A DNA stretch of 64,000 bases. Origin: an uncultured Chloroflexia bacterium. GTDB taxonomy: Bacteria; Chloroflexota; Limnocylindria; Limnocylindrales; CSP1-4. The notes under the pieces are model-generated. The model had not been told where the DNA came from and did not search any database. It was given only the letters and a program-made list of their open reading frames with translations. Location: NCBI GenBank assembly GCA_963807035.1, contig CAWEAL010000003.1, forward strand, positions 164,372 through 228,371, given 5' to 3'. Position numbers and translations under genes: made by a program. This document shows positions 9,036 to 28,353 of this stretch, in pieces (the first letter of the stretch is position 1; each line of letters opens with the position of its first letter).

Positions 9036-9866
9036 GTGATCGAGCCCACCCGCCGCGTCTCGCGCAACCGGATCCTGGCGGTCCGGGGGGAACAGGTCGA
9101 GGAGCGCGACGACACGCTCGTTGGCGAGGAGCCGATGGAGATCCGCGTCGCGGGGCCCGGGCAGCCCGAGGTCCCCGTGGCGATCACGATGCGGACGCCG
9201 GGCTCGGAAGCCGAGCTTGCCGTCGGCTTCCTGCGAACCGAGGGCCTGATCGGCGACGGCGACGTCGCCGCGATCGAGTTCGGCGATCCGGCCGCGCTCG
9301 CGCAGCCGGACGACACGGTGATCGTCCGGCTCAACCGGCCGTTCGATGCGTCCGTCGTACCCGAGCGCCACTTCGTCGCAACGGCCAGCTGCGGGATCTG
9401 CGGCAAGGCCTCGCTCGACGAGGTCGCCGTCCGGTGCGGCCCGATTCCAGCCGGACCGCTCGTGACCCGAGGCACGATCCTGGCTCTGCCCGGCCGGTTG
9501 CGCGAGGGGCAGGCGGTCTTCGAGCGGACCGGCGGGCTCCACGCCGCGGGCCTGTTCGATCCGGCCGGGGCCCTGCTCGCCCTGCGCGAGGACGTCGGCC
9601 GGCACAACGCCCTGGACAAGCTCGTCGGCTGGGCGGTCCTGGCCGGCTTGATGCCGCTGAACGACCGGATCCTGATGGTCAGCGGCCGGGTCAGCCTCGA
9701 GATCGTCCAGAAGGCGGCCGTCGCCGGGATCCCGATCGTGTGCGCAGTCTCGGCTCCGTCCGATCTCGCCGTCGAGGCGGCCGAGCAATTCGGCCAGACC
9801 CTGGTCGGCTTCCTGCGCGGCGACGGCTTCAACGTCTACGCGGGCCGTCAGCGCCTCGCCGTCTGA
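9036..9866 (+). CDS. fdhD: formate dehydrogenase accessory sulfurtransferase FdhD
   Basis: 276 aa. SCGICGKASLDEV, GGLHAAGLF and DVGRHNALDK motifs are diagnostic of FdhD. Confidence 0.9.
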   Translation: MIEPTRRVSRNRILAVRGEQVEERDDTLVGEEPMEIRVAGPGQPEVPVAITMRTPGSEAELAVGFLRTEGLIGDGDVAAIEFGDPAALAQPDDTVIVRLNRPFDASVVPERHFVATASCGICGKASLDEVAVRCGPIPAGPLVTRGTILALPGRLREGQAVFERTGGLHAAGLFDPAGALLALREDVGRHNALDKLVGWAVLAGLMPLNDRILMVSGRVSLEIVQKAAVAGIPIVCAVSAPSDLAVEAAEQFGQTLVGFLRGDGFNVYAGRQRLAV

Positions 9867-9880
9867 TTCGGGTCGGTCGA

Positions 9881-10873
9881 TCAGCCGCCGGGCGTGCGGC
9901 TCTGGACGAAGTCGAAGCCGAAGCGGCCCTTCACGCACAGGTGCCCGTCGCTCACCGACGAATCGAGGGGCGAGGTGACCTTGACGATCGCATTGTCCTG
10001 GACGTGCAGGCTGAGCGTGCAGCCGACGCCGCAATACGGGCAGATCGTGTCGGTGACGGTCTGGTCCGATTCGTCCCAGGTGCCGGCCTCGCGCATCTCG
10101 TACTCGGAGCGGAACATCAGCGCGCCGGTCGGGCAGACCCCGATGCAGTTGCCGCAGTAGACGCAGGCCGAATCGGGCAGGCCGACGTTCCACTCGGTCG
10201 AGATCCGGGCATCGAAGCCACGCCCGGCCACGGCGATCGCGAAGGTGTTCTGGGCATCGACGCCGCAGGCCTCGACGCACTTGTAGCAGAGGATGCACTT
10301 GCCGTAGTCGCGGACGTACAGCTCGTTGTCGATCTTGATCGGCTGGCCGACGGTCGCCGCCGTCGGCTCTCCGCCGGCGGGGTGATGGTGGCCCGCCTCG
10401 TGCCCGTCGCGTTCGTTCGGGCCGGCCGGCGCTGCGGCCGCGCCGAAGCGTTCGGGGTCGGCGCCGTACCGCTCGAAATAGGCGGGGGCCTGGGGCGCGG
10501 TCGACAGGTCGACCGACGACCCGAGGAGCTCGAGGACGACCCGGCGCGACAGGCGGACCCGCTCGGTATCGGTCTCGACGGCCATCCCCGCCTCGACCTT
10601 GCGCGAGCAGGCCGGCGCGAGGACCCGCGAACCGGCCACCTCCACGACGCAGACCCGGCAGGCGTTCACCGGCGTGAGGTTCTCGAGGTAGCACAGCGTC
10701 GGCGTGTCGATGCCGTCCGCCCGGCAGGCGTCGAGGATCGTCGAACCGGCAGGCACGCTGACGGCTCGCCCGTCGATCGTCAGCTCGACCAGGGCGACCG
10801 GCGGACCCGGCGGCGGCTCGGGCGTGCGCGTGGACCGGGCCGGCGGGTAGAGCTGGATCGGGTCGACGCTCAT
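9881..10873 (-). CDS. NAD-linked formate dehydrogenase Fe-S subunit (NuoG-like 2Fe-2S and 4Fe-4S domains plus the Mo-bisMGD-type 4Fe-4S domain only)
   Basis: 331 aa from the internal ATG (MSVDPIQ) of ORF 9881..11911. ATGA overlap with the upstream NuoEF-like gene. Contains CYLENLTPVNACRVC, CILCYKCVEAC, CVYCGNCIGVCP and CPYCGVGCTLSLHV...CVKGRFGFDFV, then stops where homologs continue into the catalytic domain. Confidence 0.85.
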   Translation of the reverse strand: MSVDPIQLYPPARSTRTPEPPPGPPVALVELTIDGRAVSVPAGSTILDACRADGIDTPTLCYLENLTPVNACRVCVVEVAGSRVLAPACSRKVEAGMAVETDTERVRLSRRVVLELLGSSVDLSTAPQAPAYFERYGADPERFGAAAAPAGPNERDGHEAGHHHPAGGEPTAATVGQPIKIDNELYVRDYGKCILCYKCVEACGVDAQNTFAIAVAGRGFDARISTEWNVGLPDSACVYCGNCIGVCPTGALMFRSEYEMREAGTWDESDQTVTDTICPYCGVGCTLSLHVQDNAIVKVTSPLDSSVSDGHLCVKGRFGFDFVQSRTPGG

Positions 10874-12768
10874 GCCGGAACGATACCTGCGCGGACGGCA
10901 CTCTCGATCGCCGACGAGGCAGTCTGGCCGAGCCCGCAGATCGAGGCGTCGCGCATCACCTGGCCGATCTCGCCGAGGAGGCGGAGCTCGTCGGCCCGCG
11001 ACCCGTTCGGCCTGTTCCCGGCCAGCCTGGCCAGCAGCTCCTCCTGGCGGACGGTCCCGACCCGGCAGGGCACGCACTGGCCGCACGATTCGTCGCGGAA
11101 GAAGGCGGCGATCCGGCGCAGGATGCCGAGCAGGTCGGTCGACTGGTCGAAGACCAGGACCACCCCGGAGCCGAGGGTCGCCCCGATCGCCCGGGTGCCC
11201 TCGAACGTGAGCGGGGTATCGAGGGCGTCCGGGCCGACGAAGACGCCGGCCGCGCCGCCCAGGAGGATCGCCCGGATCGACTCCGCGGGTGGTCCGCCGG
11301 CCAGCTCGAGCAGTGCCCGGAGGGTCGTCCCGAATGGGACCTCGTAGGTGCCCGGCCGGCCGACGTGACCCGACACGCAGAACAGCTTCGGACCGGTCGA
11401 GCCCTCGGTGCCGATCGCCGCATAGGCGGCGCCGCCGGCCAGGACGATGAGCGGCACGTTCGCCAGCGTCTCGACGTTGTTGACCGCGGTCGGCTGGCCG
11501 AACAGCCCGACCTCGACCGGGAACGGCGGCTTGTTGCGCGGCTCGCCGCGCCGGCCCTCGATCGAGTTGAACAGGGCGGTCTCCTCGCCGCAGATGTAGG
11601 CGCCGGCTCCGATCCGGAGCTCGATCTCGAAGCTGAAGCCCGAGCCGAGGATGTCCGGGCCGAGCAGGCCCGCCGCGCCGGCCCGGGCGATCGCGTTGCG
11701 CAGGCGTTGCGCGGCGAGCGGGTATTCGCCGCGCAGGTACAGGAAGCCGCGCTCGGCGCCGGTGGCGAATGCCTCGATCGTCATCGCCTCGACCAGCCCG
11801 AACGGGTCGTTCTCGAGCAGGACCCGATCCTTGAACGTGCCCGGCTCGGATTCGTCGGCGTTGCACACGACGTACCGGGGCGAGCCACCGGCCGCCCGGA
11901 CGGCCGCCCATTTCCGGCCCGTCGGGAACGCTGCCCCGCCCCGGCCGACCAGCTTCGCGGCGGTCACCTCGGCGATCACGGTTTCGGGCCCGATCTCGAA
12001 TGCCCTGGCCAGGGCCCGGTAGCCGCCGGCCGCCCGGTACGCCTCGAGCGAGGTCGGATCGATCCGGCCGACCCGGGCCAGGAGGCGGAGGCCGTCGTCG
12101 CCCGCCTGGGGCACGGAGGCCCGGACGGCGGCAAGGCGGTCCGCCTCGCTCGATCCGGGCCGATCGGCCGTCGCGGCGAGGGACTGGCCGGCGGCCGCCG
12201 AGGCCAGCCTGGCGGCGACGCCGACGGCGTCGATCGGGGCGGCCGCGACGTGCTCGGGCGCTTCACCCGCGATCGTGAACAGGGCCGCCGGGGCCTGCTC
12301 GCACAGGCCCAGGCACGGGCTGCGCAGCCAGGTCGTGCTGCCGTCGGCGCTCGGGCTGCCGGCCGGCCCGTGGGTCCGGGCCAGGTCCGCGCAGGTCTCC
12401 TCCGCCCCGGCCAGCCGGCAGGCGATGTCGTCGCACACGTGGGCCACGACCGGAGCTCGCTGTCGCGTCGTGAGGAGGGCGTAGAAGGTCGCGACGCCGT
12501 ACGCCTCGGCCGGCGGGATCGTCAAGCGCCGGCAGACGTAGGCGAGCGCCGGCTGGCTGATCCAGCCGATCCGATCCTGGACCGCGTGGAGCGCCGGCAG
12601 GAGCAGGTCGCGGTCGGCCCGGGCGGCGTGCCCGCCGTGCGCAGCGTGGCCGTCGGTCGCGGAATCCCGGCTGCCGCCCGCCCAGCCCGACCTGGCCGGT
12701 CCGAGGAGGGCATCGACCGCGGCTCGCTCGGCGGGGCTGGCCAGCGGTGCGACGACATGGAGGTCCAT
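10870..12768 (-). CDS. NuoE-like / NuoF-like fusion (FDH diaphorase, FdsG-FdsB type; NAD(H), FMN, Fe-S)
   Basis: 633 aa from ATG 12768 (MDLHVVAPL). NuoE-type Cys pattern (VCDDIAC ... SPCLGLC). NuoF motifs GRGGAAFPTGRKW, CNADESEPGTFKDR and ESCGQCVPCRVG. Confidence 0.9.
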   Translation of the reverse strand: MDLHVVAPLASPAERAAVDALLGPARSGWAGGSRDSATDGHAAHGGHAARADRDLLLPALHAVQDRIGWISQPALAYVCRRLTIPPAEAYGVATFYALLTTRQRAPVVAHVCDDIACRLAGAEETCADLARTHGPAGSPSADGSTTWLRSPCLGLCEQAPAALFTIAGEAPEHVAAAPIDAVGVAARLASAAAGQSLAATADRPGSSEADRLAAVRASVPQAGDDGLRLLARVGRIDPTSLEAYRAAGGYRALARAFEIGPETVIAEVTAAKLVGRGGAAFPTGRKWAAVRAAGGSPRYVVCNADESEPGTFKDRVLLENDPFGLVEAMTIEAFATGAERGFLYLRGEYPLAAQRLRNAIARAGAAGLLGPDILGSGFSFEIELRIGAGAYICGEETALFNSIEGRRGEPRNKPPFPVEVGLFGQPTAVNNVETLANVPLIVLAGGAAYAAIGTEGSTGPKLFCVSGHVGRPGTYEVPFGTTLRALLELAGGPPAESIRAILLGGAAGVFVGPDALDTPLTFEGTRAIGATLGSGVVLVFDQSTDLLGILRRIAAFFRDESCGQCVPCRVGTVRQEELLARLAGNRPNGSRADELRLLGEIGQVMRDASICGLGQTASSAIESAVRAGIVPA

Positions 12769-12776
12769 GGCCTGCC

Positions 12777-12782
12777 AGTGTA
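12777..12782 (-). promoter_or_regulatory. -10-like hexamer TACACT, 8 nt upstream of ATG 12768 (leaderless-type start)
   Basis: Minus-strand reading ...GATCGCTACACTGGCAGGCCATG. Confidence 0.3.
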
Positions 12783-12977
12783 GCGATCCGGGTCGAGATC
12801 GAGCCCCGCGGTCGAGTCCGGGATGTCCCCGCATTGCGGGCCGGCTCCACGAGATGCGCGATCGACGCCCGGGAGGCAATTCGGCAGCGTAGGCTAGCGA
12901 CGCGCACCGGGGGGAATCCCGATGGCGGCGCGGCCGAGCCTGCGCCCCTGGCTCCGGCAGCCCAGCGAGGAGTTGAG

Positions 12978-15861
12978 ATGCTTCGGTCGTCGATCGGCGC
13001 GCGGTTGGCCAGCCTGGGAGCTGCGATGCTGCTCATCAGTGGCCTGTTCGCCCAGGTCGCTCCGGTCCTCGGCGCAAGCCCGAGTCACAGCGCGCCGTTC
13101 GTTCAAGGCGCGGCAAAGGCGAGCCCGAAGCTGGTCAGCCGCGGAACGATCAATGTCCGCCAGCTCCTCGCCCAGCCGGCGGCCAAGGGGTCGTCCGACC
13201 CAGCCGCGACTGCGGCCCTGGCGAAGCTCGAGGCGAGCCTGCGCCCCGCCGGGTCGGCACCCAAGGCGAAGCCGGATGTCGTCGTGCCGCCCCCGCCGGA
13301 CCTGGCCACGGACTCGGGCCAGCCGGTTCCGACGATCGCGGTGGCCGCAGCCGGCCAGACGGAGGCCGGCGTGGGCAGCGTCGAGCCGGCCGATCCCGGG
13401 ATTGCGGTCGGGCCGGATGAATCGATCCAGGCCAACAGCAGCTCGCTCCGGTTCATCGACCGGGCGGCCAGCGCCGTATCGTCCCTCGGCACCGCGAGCT
13501 TCTTCCTGCTCCCCGAAACGTTCGGCTTCACGACCTTCGATGCCGCCCCGCGGGTCCACTTCGACACCTTGCGCCAGCGCTGGATCGCGACCGAGCTGAG
13601 CTGGGACTGCTACACGGACTATGTCGGCAACACGGCGACGTACGGACATGGCGGCCTCAACTTCGCGATCTCCGATACGCCCGATCCGCTCGGCAGCTGG
13701 TCCGTGGCGGTCTTCCCGATCGACGATGCGGTTCCGGTCGCTCCGAACTTCGGAACCTCGACCGACAAGCTCGGCCTGGCGACGACGCTGTTCGCGATGG
13801 GCTCTGGGGGAGGGCCGGACGATCCGGGCTGTGCCAACGGAGATTCCACCGAAGCCGACCTGCTCGTGATGGACTGGGCGCAGCTCGGACCGTTCTTCGA
13901 CCCGAGCAAGGTCGCCGTCACTGAGGCTTCGTTCATTCCGCTCGTCCTGAGCCTGGCGGTCCAGGAGCCCGTCACCAGCCCTGACCTGCGCCTGGTCACC
14001 TCGGTCGACGGCACCGGGATCGGCGGTACCACGTCCGACGTGTTCATCCTCGATCTAAGCGGGTCGGCCGCCAAGAAGACGGTCGTCATCAACGAATTCG
14101 ACCTGACCGACGACGCGATCGTTCCCCAGTTCCTCGACGCACCGAGCCCGCAGCAGCCGGGCGGATCGCTCACCGGCACGGTCGCGACAGTCCCCGACAG
14201 TGTCATCTACCACGACGGCACGCTCGCCTTCACGACAACGTATCCATGCATTCCCGCCGGCGACTCCACGACCCGCGACTGCGTCCGGGTCGTGACCCTC
14301 GCCACGACGACTGCCGCTGCCGAGCCGACCCGGCTGGGTGACACGCTCCTCGGCACGAACGGCTTCGATGACTCGTTCGGCGGGATCGCCTTCTCGGGCA
14401 GCGGCGTCCTCCACGCCGTCTATACCCAGTCCTCGGCGACCGCCGACGCCTCCTCGTACGAGACGTACAACCTGCCCACCGACGCAGCCAGCGCCTGGAG
14501 CGCCCAGCAGCTCCTGACCGCCGGGGCCGGCACCTACGGCGGCACCGAGTGGGGCGCCTACCTCGGCGTCGCCTCGGATCCCCAGGATCCGGGAGCCGTG
14601 TGGGTCGGCGATCCGTACGCGGCCGCCGATGGCACCTGGGCGACGACGATCCATGAGATCGTCGTCGGTGGCGGCGGGGCCGGCTACTTCCCGATCACCC
14701 CGATCCGGGTCCTCGACAGCCGCGACGGGACCGGCCTAACCGGCCACATCCCGGCCGTGTTCAGCTCGAACGTGCCCAAGACGTTCCCGGTCGCCGGGGT
14801 CACGATCAACACGATCACGATCCCGTCGGACGCCGTCGCGATCACCGGCAACCTGACCGTCACCGGCCAGACAGCGGCGGGTTTCCTGGCCCTGACCCCG
14901 ACCCCGACGACCACCCCGTCGAGCTCGACCCTGAACTTCCCTCTGGCCGACATCCGGGCGAACAACGTCACGATCGCGCTCGGCCCCGATGGCTCGCTGT
15001 CGGCCGTCTACAAGGCGGTCGCCGGCAAGCACACGAACGTGATCCTCGACGTGACTGGTTACTTCCGCACGGGTGCCGGCCAGACCTACTTCCCGATCGC
15101 CTCGACCCGGATCCTCGACAGTCGCGACGGGACCGGCCAGCCGAGCCATACCCCGGCCCCGTTCGTCGCCAACGTCGCCCAGAGCTTCCCGGTCCAGGGC
15201 TTCGGCGGCGGCCTGATCCCGATCACGGCGACCGCGATCACCGCCAACCTGACGGTCACCGGCCAGACGAAGCCGGGCTTCGTCGCCGTGACCCCGGCGC
15301 CGGACAACGCCCCCGGGACCTCGACGCTCAACTTCCCCCTCCACGACAACCGGGCGAACGGGCTGACGATCCCGATCAACGCCGACGGCACGGTCTCGGC
15401 CGTCTACAAGGCGGTGAGCGGCACGGCCAACCTGATCCTTGACGTGACCGGCTACTACTCGAACGCCGGTGGCGGCCTGCTCTTCCACCCGCTCAATCCG
15501 GGCCGTCTCGTCGACACCCGGCAGGCCCTCGGGCTCGACGGCCTGGGGAACGGCCTGCACGGGGCCCAGGGCACGACGCCGCGCCAGGTCGTGGTCAGCG
15601 GCCACTTCGCCGTGCCGGCCGGAGCCGCCGCGATCACCGGCAACCTGACGATCACCGCCCAGACCGGGCCCGGTTTCGTGGCCGTGACCGATGCAAACGT
15701 GCCGTTGCCGACCGACGTCGACGATCAACTTCCCGCTCGGCGACACCCGGGCCAACGGGATCACGACGACCCTCGGCTCGGGCAACCTCTGGTTCGTCTA
15801 CCGGCCGACCGCCGGCAAGACGGTCCAGCTGATCCTCGATATCACCGGCTACTTCCAGTGA
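12978..15861 (+). CDS. large secreted protein with three C-terminal tandem ~130-aa repeats; apparent +1 frameshift in the last repeat
   Basis: ATG 12978 after GAGGAG, with a signal-like N-terminus MLRSSIGARLASLGAAMLLISGLFAQVAPVLGA. The ORF frame runs to 15998, but repeat homology (TSTINFPLGDTRANG...LILDITGYFQ*) continues in the +1 frame from about 15714 to the stop at 15859..15861. Confidence 0.7.
14685..15858 (+). repeat. three tandem coding repeats (~402 nt / 134 aa period) of a YFP(I/L)xPxR(I/V)LD(S/T)R ... TGQT..GF(L/V)A(L/V)TP ... STLNFPL...RAN ... ILDVTGY module
   Basis: Repeat units start near 14685, 15087 and 15480. Conserved blocks were aligned by eye. Confidence 0.8.
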
Positions 15862-17868
15862 GCCGACCCCGGCCACTGAATCGGAGAGCGGCGCCCTCAC
15901 CGGCGCCGCTCTTCGATGTCTCCACGCCGGGCCCGGCGGGTCAAGGGGCCGGGACGGCCGACTCCCGAGCTTCTCGATCCGGATCGCCGTCGCCTTGAAT
16001 TCGGCAGTGCCCGACTTCGGGTCGGTCGCGTCGATCGTCAGCAGGTTGACCGCGACCTCGTCCTGGAAGTGCATCGTCATGAACGTCAGGCCCGGGCGGA
16101 GCGACGGGTCGACCCGGACCGGGACCTCGATCCGGCCGCGCCGCGAGACGACCCGAACCCGCTCGCCATCGGCCAGCTCGAGGCGGGCCAGGTCCTCGGG
16201 TGAGATGTCGAGCGACTCGCCCCTTCGCAGCGGCGAGCGGTAGCCGCCGCTCTGGACCCCGGTGTTGTACGAGTCGAGCCGCCGGCCGGTCGTGAGCCGG
16301 ACCGGGAAATCGGCATCGAGCCGGTCGACCGGCGGGTCGTGGTCGACCGGGACGAACGGTGCCCGGTTGCCCGGCACCGGATCCTCCCACAGGCGCGAAT
16401 GGAGGAACAGCTCACCGGGGTGGGTCTCGTCGTAGCACGGCCACTGGATTCCGCCGAGCTCCTCGAGCCGCTTGTAGCTCATCCCGGCGAACGCCGGGGC
16501 GAGCGAGCGGACCTCGTCCCAGATCTCCTCGGGCGTGCTCGCCGGCCAGTTCCCGCCCATCCGCCGGGCGAGCTCGACCACGATCGCCAGGTCGTCGCGC
16601 GCCTCGCCCGGTGGAGCGAGCGCCCGCCGGACGCGCTGGACCCGCCGCTCCGAGTTGGTGACAGTCCCCTCGGTCTCGGCCCAGGCGGCGGTCGCCGGCA
16701 GGACGACATCGGCCAGCTCGCCGGTCCTGGTCAGGAAGATGTCCTGGACGACCAGGAACTCGAGGTTCGAGAGGAGCCGGATCGCCCGGTCCTGGTCGGC
16801 CTCGGACTGGACCGGGTTCTCGCCGATGCAGTAGACCGCGGTCAGGCCGCCGTGCTCCATCGCGTCGAACATCCCGGACAGGTGGAGGCCCCGCCTGGGC
16901 GGCACCGGGACGCCCCAGGCCCGGTCGAACTTCGCCCGGATCTCGTCGTTCTCGACATGCTGGAAGCCGGGCAGTCGATCGGGCAGGGCGCCCATGTCGC
17001 CGCCGCCCTGCACGTTGTTCTGGCCGCGCAGTGGGCAGATCCCGCTGCCGTAGCGGCCGACGTGGCCGGTGAGCAGGGCGAGCGAGATCAGGGCGAGGAC
17101 GTTGTCCACGCCGTTGTGGTGCTCGGTGATCCCAAGCGTCCAGCAGAGCATCGCCCGGGGCGCGGTCGCGTAGGCGTGGGCCAGCTCGCGGATCATTCCG
17201 GCCGGGACGCCCGTCTCACGCTCGGCGTAGTCGAGCGTGTAGGACTCGACCCTGGCCCGGTAGTCCTCGATCCCGCTGGTCGCCCCGGCGATGAACCCCC
17301 GGTTCTCGAGGCCGGCCGCCAGGATCTCCCGGCCGATCGCGTTGGCCAGGGCGATGTCCGAGCCGACGTCGAGCCCGAGCCAGCCATCGGACCACTCGGC
17401 CGAGCTCGTCCGGCGCGGGTCGACCGTGTACAGCTTCGCCCCGTTGTGGACGCCCTTGAGCAGGTGGTGGAAGAAGATCGGGTGGGTCTCGCGGGCGTTC
17501 GAGCCCCACAGGATCACCAGGTTGGTGTCCTCGACCTCCTGGTATGAGCTTGTGCCGCCACCGGCACCGAAGACGGTCGCCAGACCGGCGACGCTAGGGG
17601 CGTGTCACGTCCGGTTGCAGCTGTCGATGTTGTTGCTGCCCAGGATCGTCCGGCTGAACTTCTGGGAGGCGTAGTTCAGCTCGTTGGTCGCCTTGGAGCA
17701 GCTGAACGTGCCGAACGTGGCCGGGCCGTGCGCCGCGCCCGCGCGCCGGAACCCGTCGACGGTCCGCTCGAGGGCCTCGTCCCAGGTGGCCGGCCGGAAT
17801 GGGGCGCCGTCACGCTTGTCGCCGTCACGAACGAGCGGAGTCGTCAGTCGGGTGTAGGTCCTCGCCAC
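15652..17868 (-). CDS. fdhA: formate dehydrogenase catalytic (molybdopterin) subunit, selenocysteine-containing, lacking the N-terminal Fe-S domains
   Basis: GTG 17868 sits 7 nt after GAGGAGG. ...SNNIDSCNRT-UGA(17607..17605)-HAPSVAGLATVFGAGGGTSSYQEVEDTNLVILWGSNARETHPIFFHH is the conserved FDH active-site context with Sec (codon 88). Joins ORFs 17605.. and 15652..17517 in one frame. The last ~105 codons (below about 15965) look like non-homologous read-through. Confidence 0.88.
15885..15912. terminator. perfect 11-bp stem / 6-nt loop hairpin between convergent genes
   Basis: AGAGCGGCGCC ctcacc GGCGCCGCTCT. Lies 24 nt after the corrected stop of the + strand gene. Only a weak T-tract. Confidence 0.45.
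17576..17604 (-). promoter_or_regulatory. bacterial SECIS element downstream of the fdhA UGA
   Basis: 12 nt after UGA: GUCGCC GGUCU GGCGAC (6-bp stem, 17592..17576). The apical loop GGUCU resembles what I recall of the E. coli fdhF SECIS loop. Confidence 0.7.
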
Positions 17869-17954
17869 CTTGGAACCTCCTCGTCGGGAACGCGAACGCA
17901 GTTGATCATGGCACGTCGAGGGCGCGGTGGCGAGCCGGGCCGCTATCGGGCGTC

Positions 17955-19025
17955 CTAGCGGCCGAGTGCCACCGTGGGCTCGGCGCGACCGCCGAGCCCC
18001 TCGACCCGCCCGACCCGCCAGCTCGAGACACCGACCGCGGCGAAGCCCGCCTCGACGGCCGGCAGCACGGCCGGGTTGATGGCAGCCAGCAGCCCGCCCG
18101 AGGTCTGCGGATCGAAGGCAAGCGTGACGAGCTCCGGCACGACGGCAGGGTCGAGCTCGAGCGCCCGGGCCGCGAACCGGCGGTTGTGGCGCGCCCCGCC
18201 CGTCTCGGCGCCGGCCCGGGCCAGGTCGAGCGCGCCGTCCAGGGCCGGCAGGTCGTCGGCCTCGAAGACGAACCGGCTGCGCGAGGCGCGGGCCATCTCC
18301 AGCCCGTGGCCGAGCAGCCCGAATCCGGTCACGTCGGTCGCTCCCCGGACGCCGTTCGCGACGAGGATCTCGGCGGCGGCCCGGTTCAGGGCGCGCATGC
18401 CGTCGACCGCGGCCGCGAAGGCCGAACCAGTGGCCGCCGGCCGGCCCTGGCGCCGGCCACTGACGAGCAGACCGGTGCCCAGTCGCTTGGTCAGCAGGAG
18501 GACGTCGCCAGGCTGCGCACCGCCCTTCCGCAGGAGCCGGGCGGGATCGGCGACCCCGATCACCGCCAGTCCGTACTTCGGCTCGACATCGACGATCGTG
18601 TGGCCGCCGGCCAGGGTCCCGCCGGCCTCGCGGACCTTGCTGCTCGCCCCCGCCAGGATCTCGGCCATCACCGGCTGGGGCAGGTCGTCGGGAAAGGCCG
18701 CGATCGACAGCGCGAAGAGGACCCGGCCACCCATCGCGAACACATCCGACAGGGCATTCGCCGCGGCGATCTCGCCGTAGGTCCGGGGATCGTCGACGAG
18801 CGGCGGGAAGAAGTCGAGGGTGCCGATCACGGCCAGGCCGGGCGCGACGAGGTAGACGGCGCCGTCGTCGGGCGGGTTGAGCCCGGCGATCAGCTCGGCC
18901 GGGGCGTCGTCGGCGGCGAGGCCGGCGAGTGCCTCGGCCAGCACGTCCGCCCCGAGCTTGGCAGCGCACCCGCCGGAGGTGGTCAGCGAGGTGAGCGGCG
19001 GAGCGTCGATGAAGCGGAGGTTCAT
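17955..19025 (-). CDS. selD: selenide, water dikinase (selenophosphate synthetase), Cys-type
   Basis: 357 aa from ATG 19025 (MNLRFIDAPPLTSLTTSGGCAAKLG...). PurM-like fold motifs (DFFPPLVDDP, GGHTI, ATDVTGFGLLGH). Confidence 0.9.
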   Translation of the reverse strand: MNLRFIDAPPLTSLTTSGGCAAKLGADVLAEALAGLAADDAPAELIAGLNPPDDGAVYLVAPGLAVIGTLDFFPPLVDDPRTYGEIAAANALSDVFAMGGRVLFALSIAAFPDDLPQPVMAEILAGASSKVREAGGTLAGGHTIVDVEPKYGLAVIGVADPARLLRKGGAQPGDVLLLTKRLGTGLLVSGRRQGRPAATGSAFAAAVDGMRALNRAAAEILVANGVRGATDVTGFGLLGHGLEMARASRSRFVFEADDLPALDGALDLARAGAETGGARHNRRFAARALELDPAVVPELVTLAFDPQTSGGLLAAINPAVLPAVEAGFAAVGVSSWRVGRVEGLGGRAEPTVALGR

Positions 19026-19031
19026 CTTTCG

Positions 19032-19037
19032 ATGATA
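19032..19037 (-). promoter_or_regulatory. -10-like hexamer TATCAT, 6 nt upstream of selD ATG (leaderless-type)
   Basis: Minus-strand reading CACTATCATCGAAAGATG. Confidence 0.35.
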
Positions 19038-19049
19038 GTGGGGCCCCGG

Positions 19050-19055
19050 TAGACT
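19050..19055 (+). promoter_or_regulatory. -10-like hexamer TAGACT, 6 nt upstream of ATG 19062 (leaderless-type)
   Basis: GGTAGACTGGCCCCATG. The whole divergent intergenic region is only 36 bp. Confidence 0.35.
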
Positions 19056-19061
19056 GGCCCC

Positions 19062-19922
19062 ATGCCGACCGACCTGCGCGCCCACACGGGCCTGGCGTAC
19101 GACGACCTGCTGCCGTCCGGGTCACCGGAGGGCGAGCCGAGCGGCCGGCCCGTGCTCCTCGTCCATGCCGGGATCTGCGATCGGCGCATGTGGGACCCCC
19201 AGCTCGGGGTGCTGTCCAAGGACCGACGGGTCCTCCGGCTCGACCTGCGCGGGTTCGGAGCCTCCGACCGGAAGGCGGCCGGAGACTTCGCCCACTACCT
19301 CGAGGTCGCCGCGCTGCTCGATGAGCTCGGGATCGTCGGAGCCCATCTCGTCGGCGGATCGATGGCGGCGGGCGTGATCGCCGAGGTTGCCCTCAGCCGG
19401 CCCGAGCTGGCCGGATCGCTTCTCCTGGTCGCCCCCGGCGGCACCCTGCGGACCGAGGTCACGGCCGACCTCGAGGCCTTCTGGGAGGCCGAGGCCGAGG
19501 CCCTCGCGGACGAGGACCTCGACCAGGCCGTCGAGGCCAACCTCGAGACCTGGCTCGACGGCCCAGGCCAGCCCTCGGACCGGGTCCCGGCATCGGTCCG
19601 GGCGTTCGTCGGGCAGATGCAGCTCAAGGCGTTCGAGAACACCGACGGCTGGGATGACGAGGAGATCGAGGGGTCCCGGCTCGAGCCGGCCGTGGCGTCC
19701 CGGGTCGGCGATCTGCGGGTGCCGACACGGATCCTCGTCGGCGAGCTCGATGTCGCGGCCGTGGGGCGGACCGCCGAGCGGCTGGCCGAGCAGATCCCGG
19801 GAGCGAGCCTCGTTCGGTGGCCCGATGTTGCCCACCTCCCCTCGCTCGAGCGGCCCGACGACTTCAGCCGCCTCGCCCGGGACTGGTTCGCCGAGGTCGA
19901 GGCAGCCGCGTCCCCGGCCTGA
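19062..19922 (+). CDS. alpha/beta hydrolase
   Basis: 286 aa. PVLLVHAGICDRRMW ... HLVGGSMAAGV (nucleophile-elbow-like) pattern. Confidence 0.8.
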   Translation: MPTDLRAHTGLAYDDLLPSGSPEGEPSGRPVLLVHAGICDRRMWDPQLGVLSKDRRVLRLDLRGFGASDRKAAGDFAHYLEVAALLDELGIVGAHLVGGSMAAGVIAEVALSRPELAGSLLLVAPGGTLRTEVTADLEAFWEAEAEALADEDLDQAVEANLETWLDGPGQPSDRVPASVRAFVGQMQLKAFENTDGWDDEEIEGSRLEPAVASRVGDLRVPTRILVGELDVAAVGRTAERLAEQIPGASLVRWPDVAHLPSLERPDDFSRLARDWFAEVEAAASPA

Positions 19923-19941: not shown

Positions 19942-20038
19942 GGGAGCGGAGGGGTCCCGGTGGGTCCCCCGGTCTTCAAAACCGGTGGCGCCACGCTCCG
20001 CGTGACGCGGTGGGTTCGACTCCCACGCGCTCCCGCCA
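19942..20038 (+). tRNA. selC: tRNA-Sec (anticodon UCA)
   Basis: ~97 nt. Anticodon arm CCGGU-CUUCAAA-ACCGG gives U33-UCA-A37. Long variable arm (..CCGCG UGA CGCGG..). T arm GUGGG-UUCGACU-CCCAC. 5' GGGAGCG pairs with 3' CGCUCCC, followed by G-CCA. Sits between selD and selA/selB. Confidence 0.85.
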
Positions 20039-22432: not shown

Positions 22433-23623
22433 CTACCCATGGTCGGCCCCCTTCGGCCCCTCCTGTGGAGCTTCGGCCAGCGCGAGGAAGAACAGCGCGA
22501 CGGGCCGGTACACGGCGTGAGCGAACTTCATGAATGGGGCGAGCAGGACGAGCTCCATTGCGACGGCGACATGGAACAGGAACACCCAGTAGCCCCAGCC
22601 GGGCGCGCTCGGGAGGTACAGGGCGAGCTCGATCGCGAAGCCGGTCACGCCGGTGATCCAGAGCAAGGCGAGGAACGTCCAGTCGGCGGCCGTCGAGTGG
22701 CGGACCGATCGCTCGTCGCCGCGCAGTCGCTGGAGGATGAGCATGCTCACGCCGTAGACGAGCAGCAAGCCGGCGACGGTGCCCAGCAGGCGGACGGGAT
22801 ACCAGACCGGGACTGGCGTACCGGTGGCCTTGATCCCGATCACGGCCAGGCCGTAGTCGAGGATCGTGGCGGCCAGCAACCCGAGGAAGCCCCACATCGT
22901 CGCGGCATGGAGGAACCAGCGACGGCGGAACCAGGGCAGCCGATCCGCGTCCGGGTCGCAGTCGGCGCGGTAGCGGCGTTGTCCGAGCGACTCGACGCCC
23001 AGGGCGCTCCACAGGGCGCCCAGGGATCGGCGCAGCGCGGGCCGGCTGCCGACGACGGAGCGCCAGCCGACGCCGCCTTCGCGGGCGAGCCGGCGAGCCA
23101 TCGTCACGACCCCGGCCAGGCCGGCCACGAACACGAGGACCATCACGCCGATCCCGATGTTGTGGATGAGCTCCTCGGGGATGAACCCGAAGATGTCGAG
23201 CGACTCGACGCTCTGGGCGCCGTGCGCTGCATACATGAACAGGGCGAAGAAGGCGGCCAGCGCCACCGCGATGAATGTTCCCAGGAACGGGCGGGTGTAC
23301 ATCGTCCGGGCGAGCCCCGTCCGGTCATAGCCGGCGATCGCGTAGCGGCGGGCGGCGGCCATGAACTCGCTCGGCTCGGCCTGGGTCGGGCACGTCTCGG
23401 AGCATTCGCCACAGGCGTAGCAGGTCCACAGCTCCTTGCTCGAGAGGAGCTTGTCGCGCAGGCCGACCTGGGCGTAGCGGATCATCCGCCGCGGGAACGT
23501 CGCGTCGTTCGTGACGAGCGGGCAGGTCGCCGTGCAGGTCCCGCAGCTGAAGCAGGCCGACACGTCTGCCGCGCCGAAGCGCTGCAGGTCGGTGAACAGG
23601 CCGGTGTCCACCTGGGTCGTCAT
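22433..23623 (-). CDS. QmoC-like membrane redox subunit (HdrC-like 2x[4Fe-4S] domain fused to an HdrE/DsrM/NarI-like cytochrome b membrane domain)
   Basis: 396 aa. CFSCGTCTATCP and CYACGECSETCP motifs, then about six TM helices with conserved His (FLHAATMWGF, FLFHVAVAMEL, KFAHAVYRP). Confidence 0.8.
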   Translation of the reverse strand: MTTQVDTGLFTDLQRFGAADVSACFSCGTCTATCPLVTNDATFPRRMIRYAQVGLRDKLLSSKELWTCYACGECSETCPTQAEPSEFMAAARRYAIAGYDRTGLARTMYTRPFLGTFIAVALAAFFALFMYAAHGAQSVESLDIFGFIPEELIHNIGIGVMVLVFVAGLAGVVTMARRLAREGGVGWRSVVGSRPALRRSLGALWSALGVESLGQRRYRADCDPDADRLPWFRRRWFLHAATMWGFLGLLAATILDYGLAVIGIKATGTPVPVWYPVRLLGTVAGLLLVYGVSMLILQRLRGDERSVRHSTAADWTFLALLWITGVTGFAIELALYLPSAPGWGYWVFLFHVAVAMELVLLAPFMKFAHAVYRPVALFFLALAEAPQEGPKGADHG

Positions 23624-23657
23624 CGGACCGATTCCGTGGGCTGGCTCGGGCTGGCAG

Positions 23658-23906
23658 TCATGCCGGCTCCTTCTCGATCGATTCGTAGCGGAAGTAGCCT
23701 TCGTCGGTCGCCCCCTTGACTTCCCGGAGGTGGCCGTAGCGACGCATGCCCATCACCCAGAAGACGACTTCGTGGGTCGGGCAGCCGAGGGCCGCGGCAA
23801 TCTCGGGCACGGTCCGTGGCCCGTCCCGGAGGATGGCCAGGATCTGGGCGCGCATGACCGGCTCCTCGCGGACGATCTCGCGGAGCTCGCGGTTCGGTCC
23901 GTTCAT
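23658..23906 (-). CDS. small winged-helix-like protein (82 aa) inside the hdr/qmo-like operon
   Basis: ATGA overlap with the hdrA-like stop. ...ILAILRDGPRTVPEIAAALGCPTHEVVFWVMGMRRYGHLRE... is HTH-like. Family not recognised. Confidence 0.5.
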   Translation of the reverse strand: MNGPNRELREIVREEPVMRAQILAILRDGPRTVPEIAAALGCPTHEVVFWVMGMRRYGHLREVKGATDEGYFRYESIEKEPA

Positions 23907-25645
23907 GCCACCGGGACCTCCAGCAGGCTGTCGATCATCGCGCTGATCTGGGCATCGGTGTAGCCACGCAGATCGATCGCGTTCTCGGGGCAGATCGGGA
24001 CGCACCCGCCGCATCCCTTGCAGCCGGTCTCGCTGATGATCGCCGTCGCCTTCGATCCGCCGGTGGCCATCTCGATCGCTCCGTACGGGCAGGCGTCGAG
24101 GCACGCGCCGCAGGCCGTGCAGGCATCCGGATCGACCGTGGCGACGAGCGGATCGAGCTCGGCGAAGCCCTTCTTCAGGATCACCGCACTCTGGGTGACG
24201 GCGGCCAGGCCCGAAGCGACGCTCTCGCTCGAGTTCTTCGGGCCCTGGCAGGCGCCCGCGATATAGACCCCATCGACGACGGTCTCGACCGGCCGGAGCT
24301 TGGGGTGGATCTCGTTGAAGAACCCGTCCGCTCCGAGCGGCAGCTTGAGGATCCCGATGAGCTCCTCGTTCTTGCGCGGGATCATGCCGGTGACGAGGAC
24401 GACCAGGTCGGCTGGAATGGCCAGCTCCTCGCCCCCGGTGAGTAGGTCGCGCACGGTGACGACCAGGCGCCCCGCGGCGTCGCGGGCCACGGCCGGAGGC
24501 GCGTCGTCGGCGAACTTCAGGTAGACCGAGCCGAGCTTGCGCGACTCGGTGTACATCAGCTCGAACTTGCCGTAGGTCCGCATGTCGCGGTACAGGTGGT
24601 ACTGGTGGACCTGGGCGTCCCGGGACGCCAGCTGGACCGACGTGGCGACCGTCGCCGCACAGCAGTAGCGCGAGCAATAGGTGTTCGCGCCCGGCTTGTC
24701 CGCCGCTTCGCGGCTGCCGACGCAATAGACGTAGACGACGTTGCGCACCGGCTTTCCGCCGTAGGTGAGCGGGCCCGTGGAACGGTCGACCAGCTCCTTG
24801 AACTCGGGCAGCGTGACGACGCCGTCGATCCCGTAGCCGTAGTCGCCCACCTCCGGCTGGTAGGTCTCGAACCCGGTCGCCACGATGATCGAGCCGACCT
24901 CGACCGAGAGCGTCTCGGGCGTGGGCCCGCTGATCCGGAGCCCGACCTGGTAGTTCCCGAAGCCGCCCGACTTGCTCACGAGCTCGGTCCCGGTGAAGAC
25001 GGTGATCGCCGGGCGCCGGCGGACCTGCTCGATCAGGGAGGCGATCAGTGCCCGGCCGTTCTTGCCGGTCGGATACATCTGGTCGAACCGGCCGACCCAG
25101 CCGCCGAGCTCGGCCTGGCGTTCGACCAGGAAGACGCCCAGCCCGATGTCGGCCAGCCCGATGGCCGCCCTCAGCCCGGCGACGCCGCCGCCGACCACGA
25201 GCGTCTTCTGGGTGGTCTCGACGACGAGCGGCTCGAGCGGATCCGACAGCCGGGTCCGGGCAATGCCGGCCTTGACCAGGCTGATCGCCTTGTTCGTCGT
25301 CCCTTGTGCATCGTCCGACTGGACCCAGGAGTCCTGCTCCCTGACGTTGACCTGGGTGTACTCGTACGGGTTGAGGCCGGCTCGCTTGGCCACGCCCCGG
25401 AAGGTGACCACGTGGAGCTTCGGCGAGCACGACGCGACGACGAGACCGTCGAGGTGCTGCTCCTCGATGTCGCGCTCCATCTCGCCCTGGCCCGAGTCCG
25501 CACAGGCAAACATCATCTGGCGGGCGACTACCACACCTTCCTCGGCCTGGGCCGCGGCGACGACCTGGTCGATGTCGACGTGGTCGGAGATGTTGCCGCC
25601 GCAGTGGCAGACGTAGACCCCGATCCGACGCTCGCGCCCGGTCAT
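23903..25645 (-). CDS. hdrA: HdrA-like FAD/Fe-S flavoprotein (QmoB-like without the MvhD domain)
   Basis: 580 aa. N-terminal IGVYVCHCGGNISDHVD Cys-cluster domain, dinucleotide fold TLVVGGGVAGLRAA, CSRYCC motif, and C-terminal ferredoxin CTACGACLDACP / CKGCGGCVPICP. Confidence 0.85.
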   Translation of the reverse strand: MTGRERRIGVYVCHCGGNISDHVDIDQVVAAAQAEEGVVVARQMMFACADSGQGEMERDIEEQHLDGLVVASCSPKLHVVTFRGVAKRAGLNPYEYTQVNVREQDSWVQSDDAQGTTNKAISLVKAGIARTRLSDPLEPLVVETTQKTLVVGGGVAGLRAAIGLADIGLGVFLVERQAELGGWVGRFDQMYPTGKNGRALIASLIEQVRRRPAITVFTGTELVSKSGGFGNYQVGLRISGPTPETLSVEVGSIIVATGFETYQPEVGDYGYGIDGVVTLPEFKELVDRSTGPLTYGGKPVRNVVYVYCVGSREAADKPGANTYCSRYCCAATVATSVQLASRDAQVHQYHLYRDMRTYGKFELMYTESRKLGSVYLKFADDAPPAVARDAAGRLVVTVRDLLTGGEELAIPADLVVLVTGMIPRKNEELIGILKLPLGADGFFNEIHPKLRPVETVVDGVYIAGACQGPKNSSESVASGLAAVTQSAVILKKGFAELDPLVATVDPDACTACGACLDACPYGAIEMATGGSKATAIISETGCKGCGGCVPICPENAIDLRGYTDAQISAMIDSLLEVPVA

Positions 25646-28353
25646 GCCGGCACCTTCGCCTGTTCCAGGTAGGCCGCCACCTGGGCCACGGTCGAGCCCG
25701 CGTGGAGGATCGAATCGGCGATGTCCTTGGCGCCCGAGGCGGCCCCGGCGACGTACACGCCGGGGATGCTGGTCTGGCCCGGATTGGCGTCCTCGTCGGT
25801 CTCCGCCACGTAGTGGAATTCGTCCTCGGCCAAGCCGCCCAGGGGGAAGAGCGCCTGGGCATCGCTGTTCGGTTGGACCCCGACGGCGAGCACGACCAGG
25901 TCATACTCGGCCTCGACCAGGCCGCCGCCGTTCTCGATGTCCTCGTAGCGCAGGACCAGGTCGCCGTTGTCCTTCTCGGTGATCTTGGCCACCCGGCCCT
26001 TGACGTAGTTGGCACCCATCGCCCGGGCCTGCTGGTAGAACTCCTCGTAGCGCTTGCCGGGTGCCCGGATGTCCATGTAGTGGACGGTCACGTCGGCGAT
26101 CGGCAGGGCGCCCATGATCAGCTGGTTCTGCTTGATCGAGTACATGCAGCAGAAGCGCGAGCAGAGCGGATTGCCGACCGTCTCGTCGCGCGAGCCCGTG
26201 CACAGCACGTAGGCGATCCGCTCGGGGACCTTGCCGTCGCCCGGCCGGAGGATCGTGTTGAACGGCCGGGTCGGGGCGAGCAGGCGGTCCATCTGCATCC
26301 CGGTGATCACGTTCTTGAACGCGCCATAGCCGTACTCCGGCTTGAGGTCGGCCGCGAAGAGCTTGAAGCCCGTGGCAACGACGACCGCGCCGACTTCGAT
26401 ATCGAGCACCTGGTCGCGGGCGTGGAGGTCGATGCAGCCGTCGACCGGGCAGGCGTCGACGCACTCGCCGCACTCCGAGCAGACGCCGCAGTCGAGGCAC
26501 AGGCCGGCGCCACGATGGGCCTCCGCTTCGGTCATCGGCAGCTCGACCTCGCGGAAGTCGGTGGGTGCGGCGCTGATCACCTCGCTCGGCTCGAGCGGGA
26601 CGGCCAGGCGGTACGCCTTCTGGCGTGCCAGGACCTGGGCCTTGTCGACGACCGGCAGGCGCCGGTCGAACCCGTCGAGCGCCTCGCCGTTGACCCAGCG
26701 ATCGATCATGTGCGCGGCACGCTGGCCCTGGCCGGTCGCCCGGGTGATGTCGGATGCGCCCGACACGACGTCGCCGGCCGCGAACAGCCAGGGAACGCCG
26801 CTCTGGAGCGTTTCGGGATCGACCGCAAGCGTGCCGCCCGGATTGGCCTGCACCTGCGCCGAGAACCCGCTCGTGTCGGGGGCCATCCCGATCGCGGTGA
26901 TGATCACCTCGCAGGCGATCTCGAAATCACTGCCCGGCACCGGCTCGGGCCGGCTCCGGCCGGACGCGTCCGGCCGGGCCGGCGCCATCCGGCTGCAGCG
27001 CAGGGCACGGGTCGCTCCGTGCCCGTCGTCGAGGACCTCGACCGGCGCGGCCTCGAAGACGAACCCGACCCCCTCCTGTTCGGTGTCATCGGCTTCGACA
27101 TGGTGGGCCGGCATCTCGGTCCGGGTGCGCCGGTAGACGACCGTGACGTCCTCCGCGCCCAAGCCGGCGGGCCGTCCGGGCCGTGTCCATGGCAACGTTC
27201 CCGCCGCCGATCACGACGACCCGCTTGCCCGACAGGTCGATGCCCTCACCGAGCTTGACCGCCCGCAGGAAGGCGACGCCGCTGAGCACGCCGTCGAGCT
27301 GCTCGCCGGGTACGCCGAGCTTCGTCGAGAGCGGGGTGCCGGTCGCCACCAGGACGGCGTCGTAGCCTTCGCCGTGGAGCGCCTCGAGGTCCTCCACCGG
27401 CGTGTTCGTGGCGATCTCGACGCCGAGCGCGGTGACATTCGCGATGTCCTGCTCGACGACCTCGGATGGCAGCCGGTAGGCCGGGATCGCGAGGCGCAGG
27501 AATCCGCCGGCCTTCGGCGCCGCGTCGAACATCCTGACCGCATAGCCCTTGCGGGCGAGCTGCCAGGCGGCAGTCAGGCCGGCCGGGCCGGTGCCAACGA
27601 TCGCCACCCGGTGTCCGTTGGGTTCGGGGATCGCGATGCCGGGACCATCGAACGCGTCGTAGTGGATGTCGGCGATGAACCGCTTGAGGCGGCGGATCGG
27701 AAGCGGTCCCTCGAGCGAGCCACGCGTGCATTCGAGCTCGCACGGCGCGTAGCAGGCCCGCCCGAGCGTACCGACGAGTGGCGTCGCGTCGAGGACGAGC
27801 TGGAACGCCTTCTCGTACTCGCCGCTCCGGATGAGCGACACGTAGCCGTGGGCCTGGATCCCGGCCGGGCAGGTGTACGAGCAGGGCGAGGATCCGGCCC
27901 GCTCGATGACGGCTTTCTTGGGCACGGCCTGGGGGAACGCGATGTAGGCCGCCCGGCGCTGCGATCATGTCGGCGTTGAACTGGTCGGGGACCGCCACGG
28001 TGCAGGCCGTCTCGCACTGCTGGCAGCCGGTGCAGGTCGCCTCGTTCGACGAATCGGGCCTTGCGGGTGACTTTCGCCTTGAATCGGCCTCCGGCACTGG
28101 GCGTGATGCCGTCGACTTCGCTGTAGGTGAGGGTGGTGACGTTCGGATGGTGGATCGAGGCGGCCATCTTCGGCGTCGAGATGCAGCTCGCGCAGTCGAG
28201 GGTCGGGAAGACCTTGCTGAGCAGGATCATCTTCCCGCCCACGCTCGCCTCCTTCTCGACGAGAAGGACGCGGTAGCCCATGTCGCCCAGCTTCAGGGCG
28301 GATTCCATGCCGCCGATGCCCGCCCCGACGACGAGGACGTCGTAGTCGGTCAT
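25642..28353 (-). pseudogene. giant HdrA-like flavoprotein with an inserted GltD/NfnB-like NAD(P)H-binding module ('HdrL'-like); three apparent frameshifts
   Basis: Domain continuity runs across four frames. (1) MTDYDVLVVGAGIGGMESALKL...KVFPTLDCASCISTPK...KARFVE. (2) EATCTGCQQCETACTVAVPDQFNADMIA. (3) RRAAYIAFPQAVPKKAVIERAGSSPCSYTCPAG...GRACYAPCELEC...VAIVGTGPAGLTAA...VVVIGGGNVAMDTARTARRLG. (4) AEDVTVVYRRTRTEMPAH...AAGDVV...CLDCGVCSECGECVDACP...CSRFCCMYS...GVYVAGAASG. Breaks at about 28044, 27959 and 27157. 4-nt overlaps with both neighbours. Confidence 0.75.

Follow-up and report, generated by a model that had tools for sequence, protein, structure and literature searches.

A probable formate dehydrogenase with its alpha subunit encoded as two separate, permuted genes in Limnocylindrales and other soil bacteria

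The window analysed here is a stretch of 64,000 nucleotides, about 72% G+C, from contig CAWEAL010000003.1 (assembly GCA_963807035.1, positions 164,372 to 228,371 of the forward strand) of an uncultured Chloroflexia bacterium in the order Limnocylindrales, and the subject is a formate dehydrogenase locus in which the parts of one alpha subunit are carried by two genes, one for an iron-sulfur (Fe-S) protein and one for a catalytic protein. Read 5' to 3' on the minus strand, the order is selD, the catalytic gene, a gap, the gene for a NuoE-NuoF fusion (NuoEF), and the Fe-S gene, with 4.8 kb and an opposite-strand gene separating the two halves (Table 1). The original prediction of this arrangement, made from the DNA alone, had described a permuted order, with the catalytic half first after selD and the Fe-S half after the NuoEF fusion, and a plus-strand gene for a large secreted protein between them; translation and Pfam find all of these features in place, the product of the plus-strand gene having a signal-peptide-like start.

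The Fe-S protein has the Pfam domains Fer2_4 (residues 29-103), 4Fe-4S dicluster (192-252), and Molybdop_Fe4S4 (272-324), and its clusters are accordingly a NuoG-like [2Fe-2S] cluster, two ferredoxin-type [4Fe-4S] clusters, and the [4Fe-4S] cluster of the FS0 domain. Pfam found no Molybdopterin domain in this protein; its stop codon comes six residues past Molybdop_Fe4S4, and its C-terminus reads ...CVKGRFGFDFVQSRTPGG. All four FS0 ligands (C278, C281, C285, and C313) are on the Fe-S protein, as is K315, which is two residues past the last of these cysteines in the sequence C-V-K-G-R and is the counterpart of Lys44 in Escherichia coli formate dehydrogenase H (FdhH). PMC12176258 describes Lys44 as strictly conserved in formate dehydrogenases and reports that, of the substitutions tested, K44R alone retained activity, at 7.1% of wild type. 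Exactly 16 cysteines are conserved in at least 90% of 83 sequences of the Fe-S protein family, a number that suffices for one [2Fe-2S] cluster, two [4Fe-4S] clusters, and FS0. None of the four ligands of the His-ligated cluster occurs in the alignment of these 83 members; where FdsA has its His-Cys3 motif (H117, C121, C124, C130), the family has throughout a Cys-free segment. This segment (Fe-S residues ~115-185) carries a conserved ERD...GHH(H) motif. The missing cluster corresponds to cluster A4 of the Rhodobacter capsulatus formate dehydrogenase (RcFDH), which PMC7171172 places at the dimer interface, off the path from Mo to flavin mononucleotide (FMN). Because A4 is off that path in RcFDH, its loss should leave the electron chain unbroken, and a dimer contact of the FdsA type may be absent in the split family.

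In the catalytic protein, Pfam Molybdopterin (PF00384, E 1.5e-63) matches from profile position 1 at residue 7 and Molydop_binding (PF01568, E 4.1e-27) covers residues 524-627. The active-site residues are selenocysteine 88 (Sec88), His89, and Arg281, the last within RGQNNVQG, and the PDB matches extend from E 1e-143 to 1e-122, with FdhF, FdhH, and FdsA at E 1e-143 to 1e-126. The original prediction held that an alpha subunit had been cleanly cut at the boundary between FS0 and the MopB fold, and the alignment to FdsA that it suggested bears this out: residues 20-303 of R. capsulatus FdsA (6tg9_A, 958 aa) align to the Fe-S protein and residues 307-933 to the catalytic protein. NCBIfam model TIGR01591 divides at the same place, with positions 1-50 corresponding to Fe-S residues 276-325 and positions 51-672 to catalytic residues 5-631. 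By these alignments the junction is exact, with nothing lost and nothing duplicated. Each half has its own start, as had also been claimed: a GTG behind a GAGGAGG ribosome-binding site for the catalytic gene, and for the Fe-S gene an ATG in an ATGA overlap with the NuoEF stop. The claim that the catalytic half is devoid of a cluster domain agrees with the absence of any Fe-S cluster motif from the catalytic protein, by Pfam and by sequence, and with the absence of a CxxCxxxC motif in-frame upstream of the catalytic start in the relatives surveyed. Among the features of TIGR01591 alpha subunits, the MopB pterin domains, the Sec-His pair, and the active-site Arg are present, and FS0 is not in cis with the pterin domains.

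The third protein, the NuoE-NuoF fusion, contains a thioredoxin-like [2Fe-2S] module, an FMN/NAD(H) site, and one [4Fe-4S] cluster; its start codon was picked by alignment with relatives. Two features of the FdsABG / Fdh1AB class are present in the locus, a NuoG-like Fe-S extension linking FS0 to the diaphorase and NuoF-type FMN/NAD(H) and NuoE-type [2Fe-2S] modules encoded alongside.

The selenocysteine part of the locus is ordinary. The in-frame TGA of the catalytic gene has the context CNRT-U-HAPS, and TGA is present at this position in all 61 relatives in which the site is covered. A hairpin of the selenocysteine insertion sequence (SECIS) type, GUCGCC-GGUCU-GGCGAC, begins 12 nt past the UGA; all six of its pairs are kept in 61 of 61 loci and the GGUCU loop in 60, and the stem has one double compensatory change and several G-U changes among these loci. 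Its spacing and loop are those of the E. coli fdhF SECIS. The single-sequence minimum-energy fold after the UGA did not choose this hairpin (z -0.97). The UGA, the stem-loop, tRNA-Sec, and selD that go with fdhF-type Sec recoding are present in the window.

The stand-alone Fe-S protein is very common. A search confined to proteins of similar length gave at least 8000 matches (8000 of 8000 scored candidates), and the best 120 of these 8000 are 329-422 aa long, have the same domain set, and are without a Molybdopterin domain; a second query, taken from an actinobacterial locus, led to the same result. When 50% clusters are compared, family matches have at least 50% identity, with the best full-length ones at 57-70%, and the next proteins are at 37-45%; the search of representatives yielded mostly fragments. 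Nine of the ten nearest longer outgroup proteins run on from FS0 into a Molybdopterin domain by Pfam, while the tenth (P0265) had no Molybdopterin match at the E-value limit used. Several outgroup proteins end at profile position ~81, their gene calls having been cut short at the Sec codon, and some of the fused ones are also without the NuoG His-cluster domain. Medium-length matches were considered as other forms of split, and nine of ten checked were fused genes cut at the Sec codon or a contig end.

Gene neighborhoods were compared in a survey of 82 loci made by tblastn with six proteins of the window. In all 82, the Fe-S gene stops 0-32 codons past the aligned end of FS0; of four apparent exceptions, L047, L051, and L055 were alignments across a TAG stop, and L024 was an open frame across the opposite-strand fdhD. 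The source of the window is probably a metagenome-assembled genome (MAG) and there are signs of indels nearby, so the split might be taken for an artefact of assembly or gene calling, such as a chimeric contig or a mis-called frame, but the same split is present in these 82 independent loci from many studies and sequencing platforms, including contigs of 3.7 Mb and 7.1 Mb, and the probability of an artefact is negligible. When each species was represented by a single genome, a scan gave at least 520 loci with the stand-alone Fe-S protein. The original prediction had asked whether the split might be a common, already described operon type: it is common, and full-text literature searches found no published description of it and no characterized member of the family, which is absence of evidence only. 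The split design is old and common to soil bacteria of at least five phyla, and this widespread design is apparently undescribed. One Limnocylindrales contig (L021:9517-14528, minus strand) has, right next to the split genes, a fused alpha subunit of canonical form, with 34-45% identity to the halves, and a NuoF-like gene, so that a single genome can contain both designs. In the Limnocylindrales MAG locus L003, an in-frame TAG replaces a conserved Tyr in ELRIGAGAYICGEETAL, in the NuoF part at NuoEF query position 393, and is probably a sequencing error or the mark of a pseudogene.

The order of the catalytic gene, NuoEF, and the Fe-S gene on one strand is the same in 64 of 64 loci in which both halves were found. 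If a gap of up to 200 nt is counted as contiguous and a gap of more than 500 nt as interrupted, then 36 of the 64 are contiguous, 27 are interrupted, and one, from Acidobacteriota, has a short gap of 200-500 nt. The contiguous loci, 36 of 67 in the survey, include 5/5 from Planctomycetota, 15/16 from Acidobacteriota, and 5/5 from Actinomycetota, together with one from Thermomicrobiota, one from Binatota, and eight from Chloroflexota. Of the interrupted loci, 24 are from Chloroflexota, two have no phylum label and are closely related to the window, and the last, a short contig, is labelled Saccharimonadota. In a maximum-likelihood tree built from 49 rows of the concatenated halves, the phylum label changes 7 times, where the minimum is 5 and the shuffled mean 19; the tree largely follows the phyla Chloroflexota, Acidobacteriota, Planctomycetota, Actinomycetota, and Thermomicrobiota. 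Locus L001, with 90% identity, is the sister of the window. On this tree the interrupted state needs about four changes, which are concentrated in one subclade of Limnocylindria, and the early-branching Limnocylindria relatives L011, L041, and L080 are contiguous.

The genes found in the gap are varied. L001 has the same large repeat protein as the window, 56% identical, while the 3.7-Mb contig has a DUF2252 protein, a sulfate transporter, and an ion channel, and other loci have a subtilase, Na/Ca exchangers, an amino-acid permease, a serine dehydratase, or a histidine kinase. The product of the inserted gene in the window is ~960 aa long with three C-terminal repeats of 132 aa, of the form ...ITGNLTVTGQT..GF..VTP....STLNFPL.D.RAN......G..S.VYKA..G....ILDVTGY, and has no Pfam, NCBIfam, or PDB match. 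Because the contiguous order is found across phyla, the gaps are almost confined to Chloroflexota, and their cargo varies, the fission and permutation are ancestral and the spacing in the window comes from an insertion that later separated the catalytic gene from nuoEF. What is special to this lineage is the intervening unrelated gene alone, and the distance of 4.8 kb is due to an insertion specific to the lineage. In one Limnocylindria subclade, the stretch from the catalytic gene to nuoEF would have turned into an insertion place for unrelated genes. The locus therefore now consists of two transcription units, selD-catalytic and nuoEF-FeS.

The original prediction had called the arrangement a fission plus rearrangement and not a simple insertion. 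Its first part holds, in that the fission and permuted order are real, but both are ancestral and the local spacing is what it had denied, an insertion. That the separation arose by fission and rearrangement at this locus is highly improbable: the halves do lie 4.8 kb apart across an opposite-strand gene, and three Chloroflexota loci without a catalytic gene within 8 kb show that further rearrangement occurs, but the order is unchanged in all 64 loci and contiguous in 36, the interrupted loci are concentrated in one subclade whose early-branching relatives are contiguous, the contents of the gaps are mutually unrelated, and nuoEF and the Fe-S gene are still ATGA-coupled.

The split itself is taken as a single old event. 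It was also considered whether the halves might be of different ancestry, an FdhF-like protein without FS0 and an FdsA-like protein without its MopB part; against this are the exact complementarity of the halves at the junction and the presence of fused, A4-less, Sec-type relatives among the nearest outgroups, and a single fission would be the simpler reading than two ancestors. As for its origin, a tandem duplication of an operon with alpha subunit then diaphorase, followed by loss of the outer halves (the Fe-S part of the first copy and the catalytic part of the second), would give both the fission and the permuted order in one go.

We consider it likely that the locus encodes a three-subunit cytoplasmic, probably NAD(P)-linked formate dehydrogenase whose fission and permutation are old and whose spacing came about by later insertion. 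Formate would be oxidised at a Mo- or W-bis-pyranopterin site of the catalytic subunit (Sec88, His89, Arg281), from which electrons would pass to the [4Fe-4S] cluster FS0. Because FS0 and K315 are at the C-terminal end of a separate polypeptide, FS0 must dock in trans, and it would do so on the catalytic subunit with K315 beside the pterin. From FS0 the predicted path leads through the two ferredoxin-type [4Fe-4S] clusters and then the [2Fe-2S] cluster of the Fe-S subunit to the [4Fe-4S] cluster and FMN of NuoE-NuoF, and finally to NAD(P)+. An alternative is that the halves are not partners, NuoEF-FeS being a free-standing NAD(P)H diaphorase for other partners and the catalytic protein using some other acceptor. 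The two are in separate transcription units in this lineage with variable genes between them, and in three loci the catalytic gene is not nearby. However, no role is known for FS0 and its C-x-K motif where a pterin partner is lacking, the catalytic protein lacks a cluster through which to pass electrons onward, every other phylum surveyed has the three genes side by side, the tree of the concatenated halves is well supported, and fdhD and selD flank the set, all of which make this alternative extremely doubtful.

Several points weigh against the proposed enzyme and its working state in this genome. That the subunits assemble in trans and that the enzyme is NAD-linked are inferred from homology, as are the path of the electrons and the catalytic direction. 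The TIGR01591 score is 638.7 bits for the catalytic protein, below the cut-off of 666.25 because the first 50 profile positions are missing, and 54.6 bits for the Fe-S protein. A single-chain AlphaFold2 model of the Fe-S protein, made from a 27-row alignment, is poor, with a mean predicted local distance difference test score of 54 and the FS0 and ferredoxin region below 50. In the Chloroflexota loci L024, L040, and L061 no catalytic gene lies within 8 kb upstream; the halves there may be further apart or the catalytic gene may have been lost. These three loci do hold nuoEF, the Fe-S gene, and fdhD. In the window itself, a 2-base difference from L001 just past ...IRIE throws the usual catalytic TGA out of frame, and the open reading frame runs on for 103 unconserved codons (15652..15960), through a hairpin and antisense to its neighbor. 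The neighboring inserted gene has one extra base near 15690-15714, in the third repeat (spacing 396, 396, and 397 nt), which shifts it off its conserved end DITGYFQ (ancestral stop 15859-15861). The two indels, about 250 nt apart, are either real damage or assembly errors.

These indels could mean that the window copy is decaying and that the enzyme is no longer made in this genome, given the lost catalytic stop with its read-on through the hairpin and the frameshifted neighbor. This is very unlikely, as the 636 conserved catalytic codons, nuoEF, the Fe-S gene, selD, and fdhD are intact, with no internal stop or frameshift in their conserved parts, and the Sec codon, SECIS hairpin, and tRNA-Sec are intact as well; two indels so close together look like a local assembly error. 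The genes are under purifying selection, with ratios of nonsynonymous to synonymous substitution rates (dN/dS) against L001 of 0.12 for the Fe-S gene, 0.13 for the catalytic gene, 0.21 for nuoEF, 0.20 for selD, and 0.16 for fdhD. Many long-read MAG loci in the survey have similarly broken matches. No sequencing run of the same strain was found, the runs found being from relatives with no more than 9% of words in common. In soil metatranscriptomes, contigs of relatives (85-99% alike) span 15920-17835 and with it the TGA; they are evidence of transcription in relatives and silent on the window organism.

The stem-loop region between the convergent genes is very stable, with a minimum free energy of -70.7 kcal/mol (z -4.4) on one strand and -69.9 kcal/mol (z -4.5) on the other, and none of 200 shuffles folds as stably. 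L001 lacks about 57 nt of this region, a long and nearly perfect GC-rich hairpin among them. This region is probably a two-way transcript end. A scan of 9700-19200 for consensus promoters and terminators gave no matches, as is expected for DNA of such high G+C content.

Proteins of the FdhD/NarQ family are helpers in sulfur transfer and molybdenum cofactor insertion for formate dehydrogenase, and fdhD is syntenic in L001 and most Limnocylindria loci. The order of selD and then the catalytic gene is kept in L001, L002, and many further loci, and selA adjoins the locus in L001. Elsewhere on the minus strand, at 22433-27210, are three adjacent open reading frames with domains of the 4Fe-4S dicluster and pyridine-nucleotide-disulfide oxidoreductase types, and one of the three has in addition a weak match resembling nitrate reductase gamma; they look like a separate Fe-S flavoprotein or heterodisulfide-reductase-like set.

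Table 1. Genes and other features of the split formate dehydrogenase locus, in window coordinates
Feature	Coordinates	Strand	Basis or remark
fdhD (FdhD/NarQ family)	9036..9866	+	Pfam PF02634, E 1.6e-63; convergent with Fe-S gene
Fe-S subunit, 330 aa	9881..10873	-	Pfam; alignment to FdsA 20-303; TIGR01591 positions 1-50
NuoE-NuoF fusion (diaphorase), 632 aa	10870..12768 (start ATG 12768)	-	Pfam PF01257, PF01512, PF10531, PF10589; NCBIfam NuoF and NuoE models
Inserted large-protein gene	12978..15861 (sequenced frame to 15998)	+	Translation; signal-peptide-like start
GC-rich stem-loop region between convergent genes	15862..15960		Minimum free energy against shuffles
Catalytic subunit	15652..17868 (conserved part 15961..17868, 636 aa)	-	Translation; Pfam; PDB matches; TIGR01591
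fdhF-like SECIS hairpin	17576..17592	-	Conservation across 61 loci
In-frame TGA, selenocysteine	17605..17607	-	Sec/Cys active-site position of PDB formate dehydrogenases
Ribosome-binding site GAGGAGG, 7-nt spacer to catalytic GTG 17868	17876..17882	-	Direct sequence reading
selD (selenophosphate synthetase)	17955..19085	-	Pfam AIRS and AIRS_C; directly upstream of catalytic gene
tRNA-Sec, anticodon UCA	19942..20038	+	ARAGORN; Rfam RF01852, 71.3 bits, E 2.5e-13

If the position of the cut were functional and not neutral, then FS0 and its lysine would have been moved to the diaphorase side, and the Sec/pterin subunit would have become a cluster-free module. Such a module could be matured separately, through Sec decoding and cofactor loading by FdhD, and be active upon docking only; in Limnocylindria, a pre-assembled NuoEF-FeS diaphorase and the catalytic module might then be regulated independently, for example by the supply of selenium, molybdenum, or tungsten. 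We regard a functional cut as unlikely.

To our knowledge, the Mo/W-bis-pyranopterin enzymes all have the proximal [4Fe-4S] cluster and its neighboring lysine in the same chain as the cofactor. The split family is a natural case of FS0 and cofactor on different proteins, in hundreds of species from several soil phyla. According to PMC5123574, FS0 has to be inserted into NarG and DmsA, of nitrate and DMSO reductase, before the molybdenum cofactor can be. Since FS0 precedes the cofactor in those enzymes, a natural enzyme with FS0 in trans is of mechanistic interest, and the family is a ready system for studying the order of cofactor insertion and whether FS0 works in trans, as well as a template for the engineering of modular formate dehydrogenases or CO2 reductases. 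The interrupted operon, which is the feature specific to the window, is of minor interest. Annotation is also affected. In the public gene calls at L001:3069-4994 and L002:1909-3816, the catalytic gene is broken at the Sec TGA into pieces of 84-87 and 524-540 aa, and the Fe-S protein is labelled in its sources 'HndD', 'YjgC', or '2Fe-2S iron-sulfur cluster-binding protein', with source names such as 'Candidatus Limnocylindrales' and 'Chloroflexi'. From these cut gene calls and labels, the enzyme is easily overlooked in metabolic surveys, and the capacity for formate oxidation in abundant soil lineages has therefore probably been under-counted.

Of the known systems, the soluble NAD+-dependent Mo enzymes FdsABG(D) of R. 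capsulatus and Cupriavidus necator (PDB 6TG9/6TGA) have the same chain of modules as the window locus: a NuoG-like front end with [2Fe-2S] and [4Fe-4S] clusters, then FS0, the catalytic domains of the MopB fold, and a diaphorase made of NuoE and NuoF modules. However, FdsA is one chain of 958 aa, whereas the window locus is cut between FdsA residues 303 and 307 and its genes are permuted. The active-site ligand is Cys386 in FdsA and Sec in the window locus, the His-ligated A4 at the FdsA dimer interface is absent from the latter, and NuoE and NuoF are fused in the window locus, unlike in FdsABG(D). The tungsten enzyme Fdh1AB of Methylorubrum extorquens (PDB 7E5Z, 7VW6) is cytoplasmic and NAD-linked, as is proposed from homology for the enzyme described here. 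Both halves have a match in its alpha subunit, Fdh1A, with E 1.8e-122 for the catalytic and E 2.4e-35 for the Fe-S half. The beta subunit of Fdh1AB is a NuoE-NuoF fusion, like the 632-aa protein of the window, and Fdh1A uses Cys, not Sec. Fdh1A is a single chain of 989-995 aa with FS0 in cis, whereas the halves are separate in the window locus.

Division of the alpha subunit at other places is known. For HylABC-FdhF2 of Gottschalkia acidurici and the NAD-linked complexes of clostridia and Desulfotomaculum, PMC5736913 places HylA on a polypeptide separate from the Sec catalytic subunit and describes FdhA as having its own Fe-S cluster-binding domains. The window locus resembles this type in having the NuoG-like module on a polypeptide apart from the catalytic subunit, but the Fe-S domains that the HylABC-FdhF2 / Hyt-Fdh type has on its catalytic chain are absent: that type is cut elsewhere, while the cut in the window lies past FS0 and leaves the proximal cluster and its lysine off the pterin chain. 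E. coli FdhF (FdhH, PDB 1AA6/1FDO) matches the catalytic half at E 1.9e-136 and shares the Sec-His pair and the Arg of RGQNNVQG; it has FS0 (C8, C11, C15, C42, K44) within its own first 60 residues and no NuoG-like front end, and catalytic residue 6 of the window protein aligns to its residue 60. Formylmethanofuran dehydrogenase FwdB/FwdD (FmdB/FmdD) is also a MopB enzyme encoded in pieces; its C-terminal dinucleotide-binding domain is separate, FS0 being kept together with the pterin domains. FwdB has a weak match to the catalytic half, and FwdB/FwdD is split at the other end of the fold from the window locus, where it is the proximal cluster that is encoded apart.

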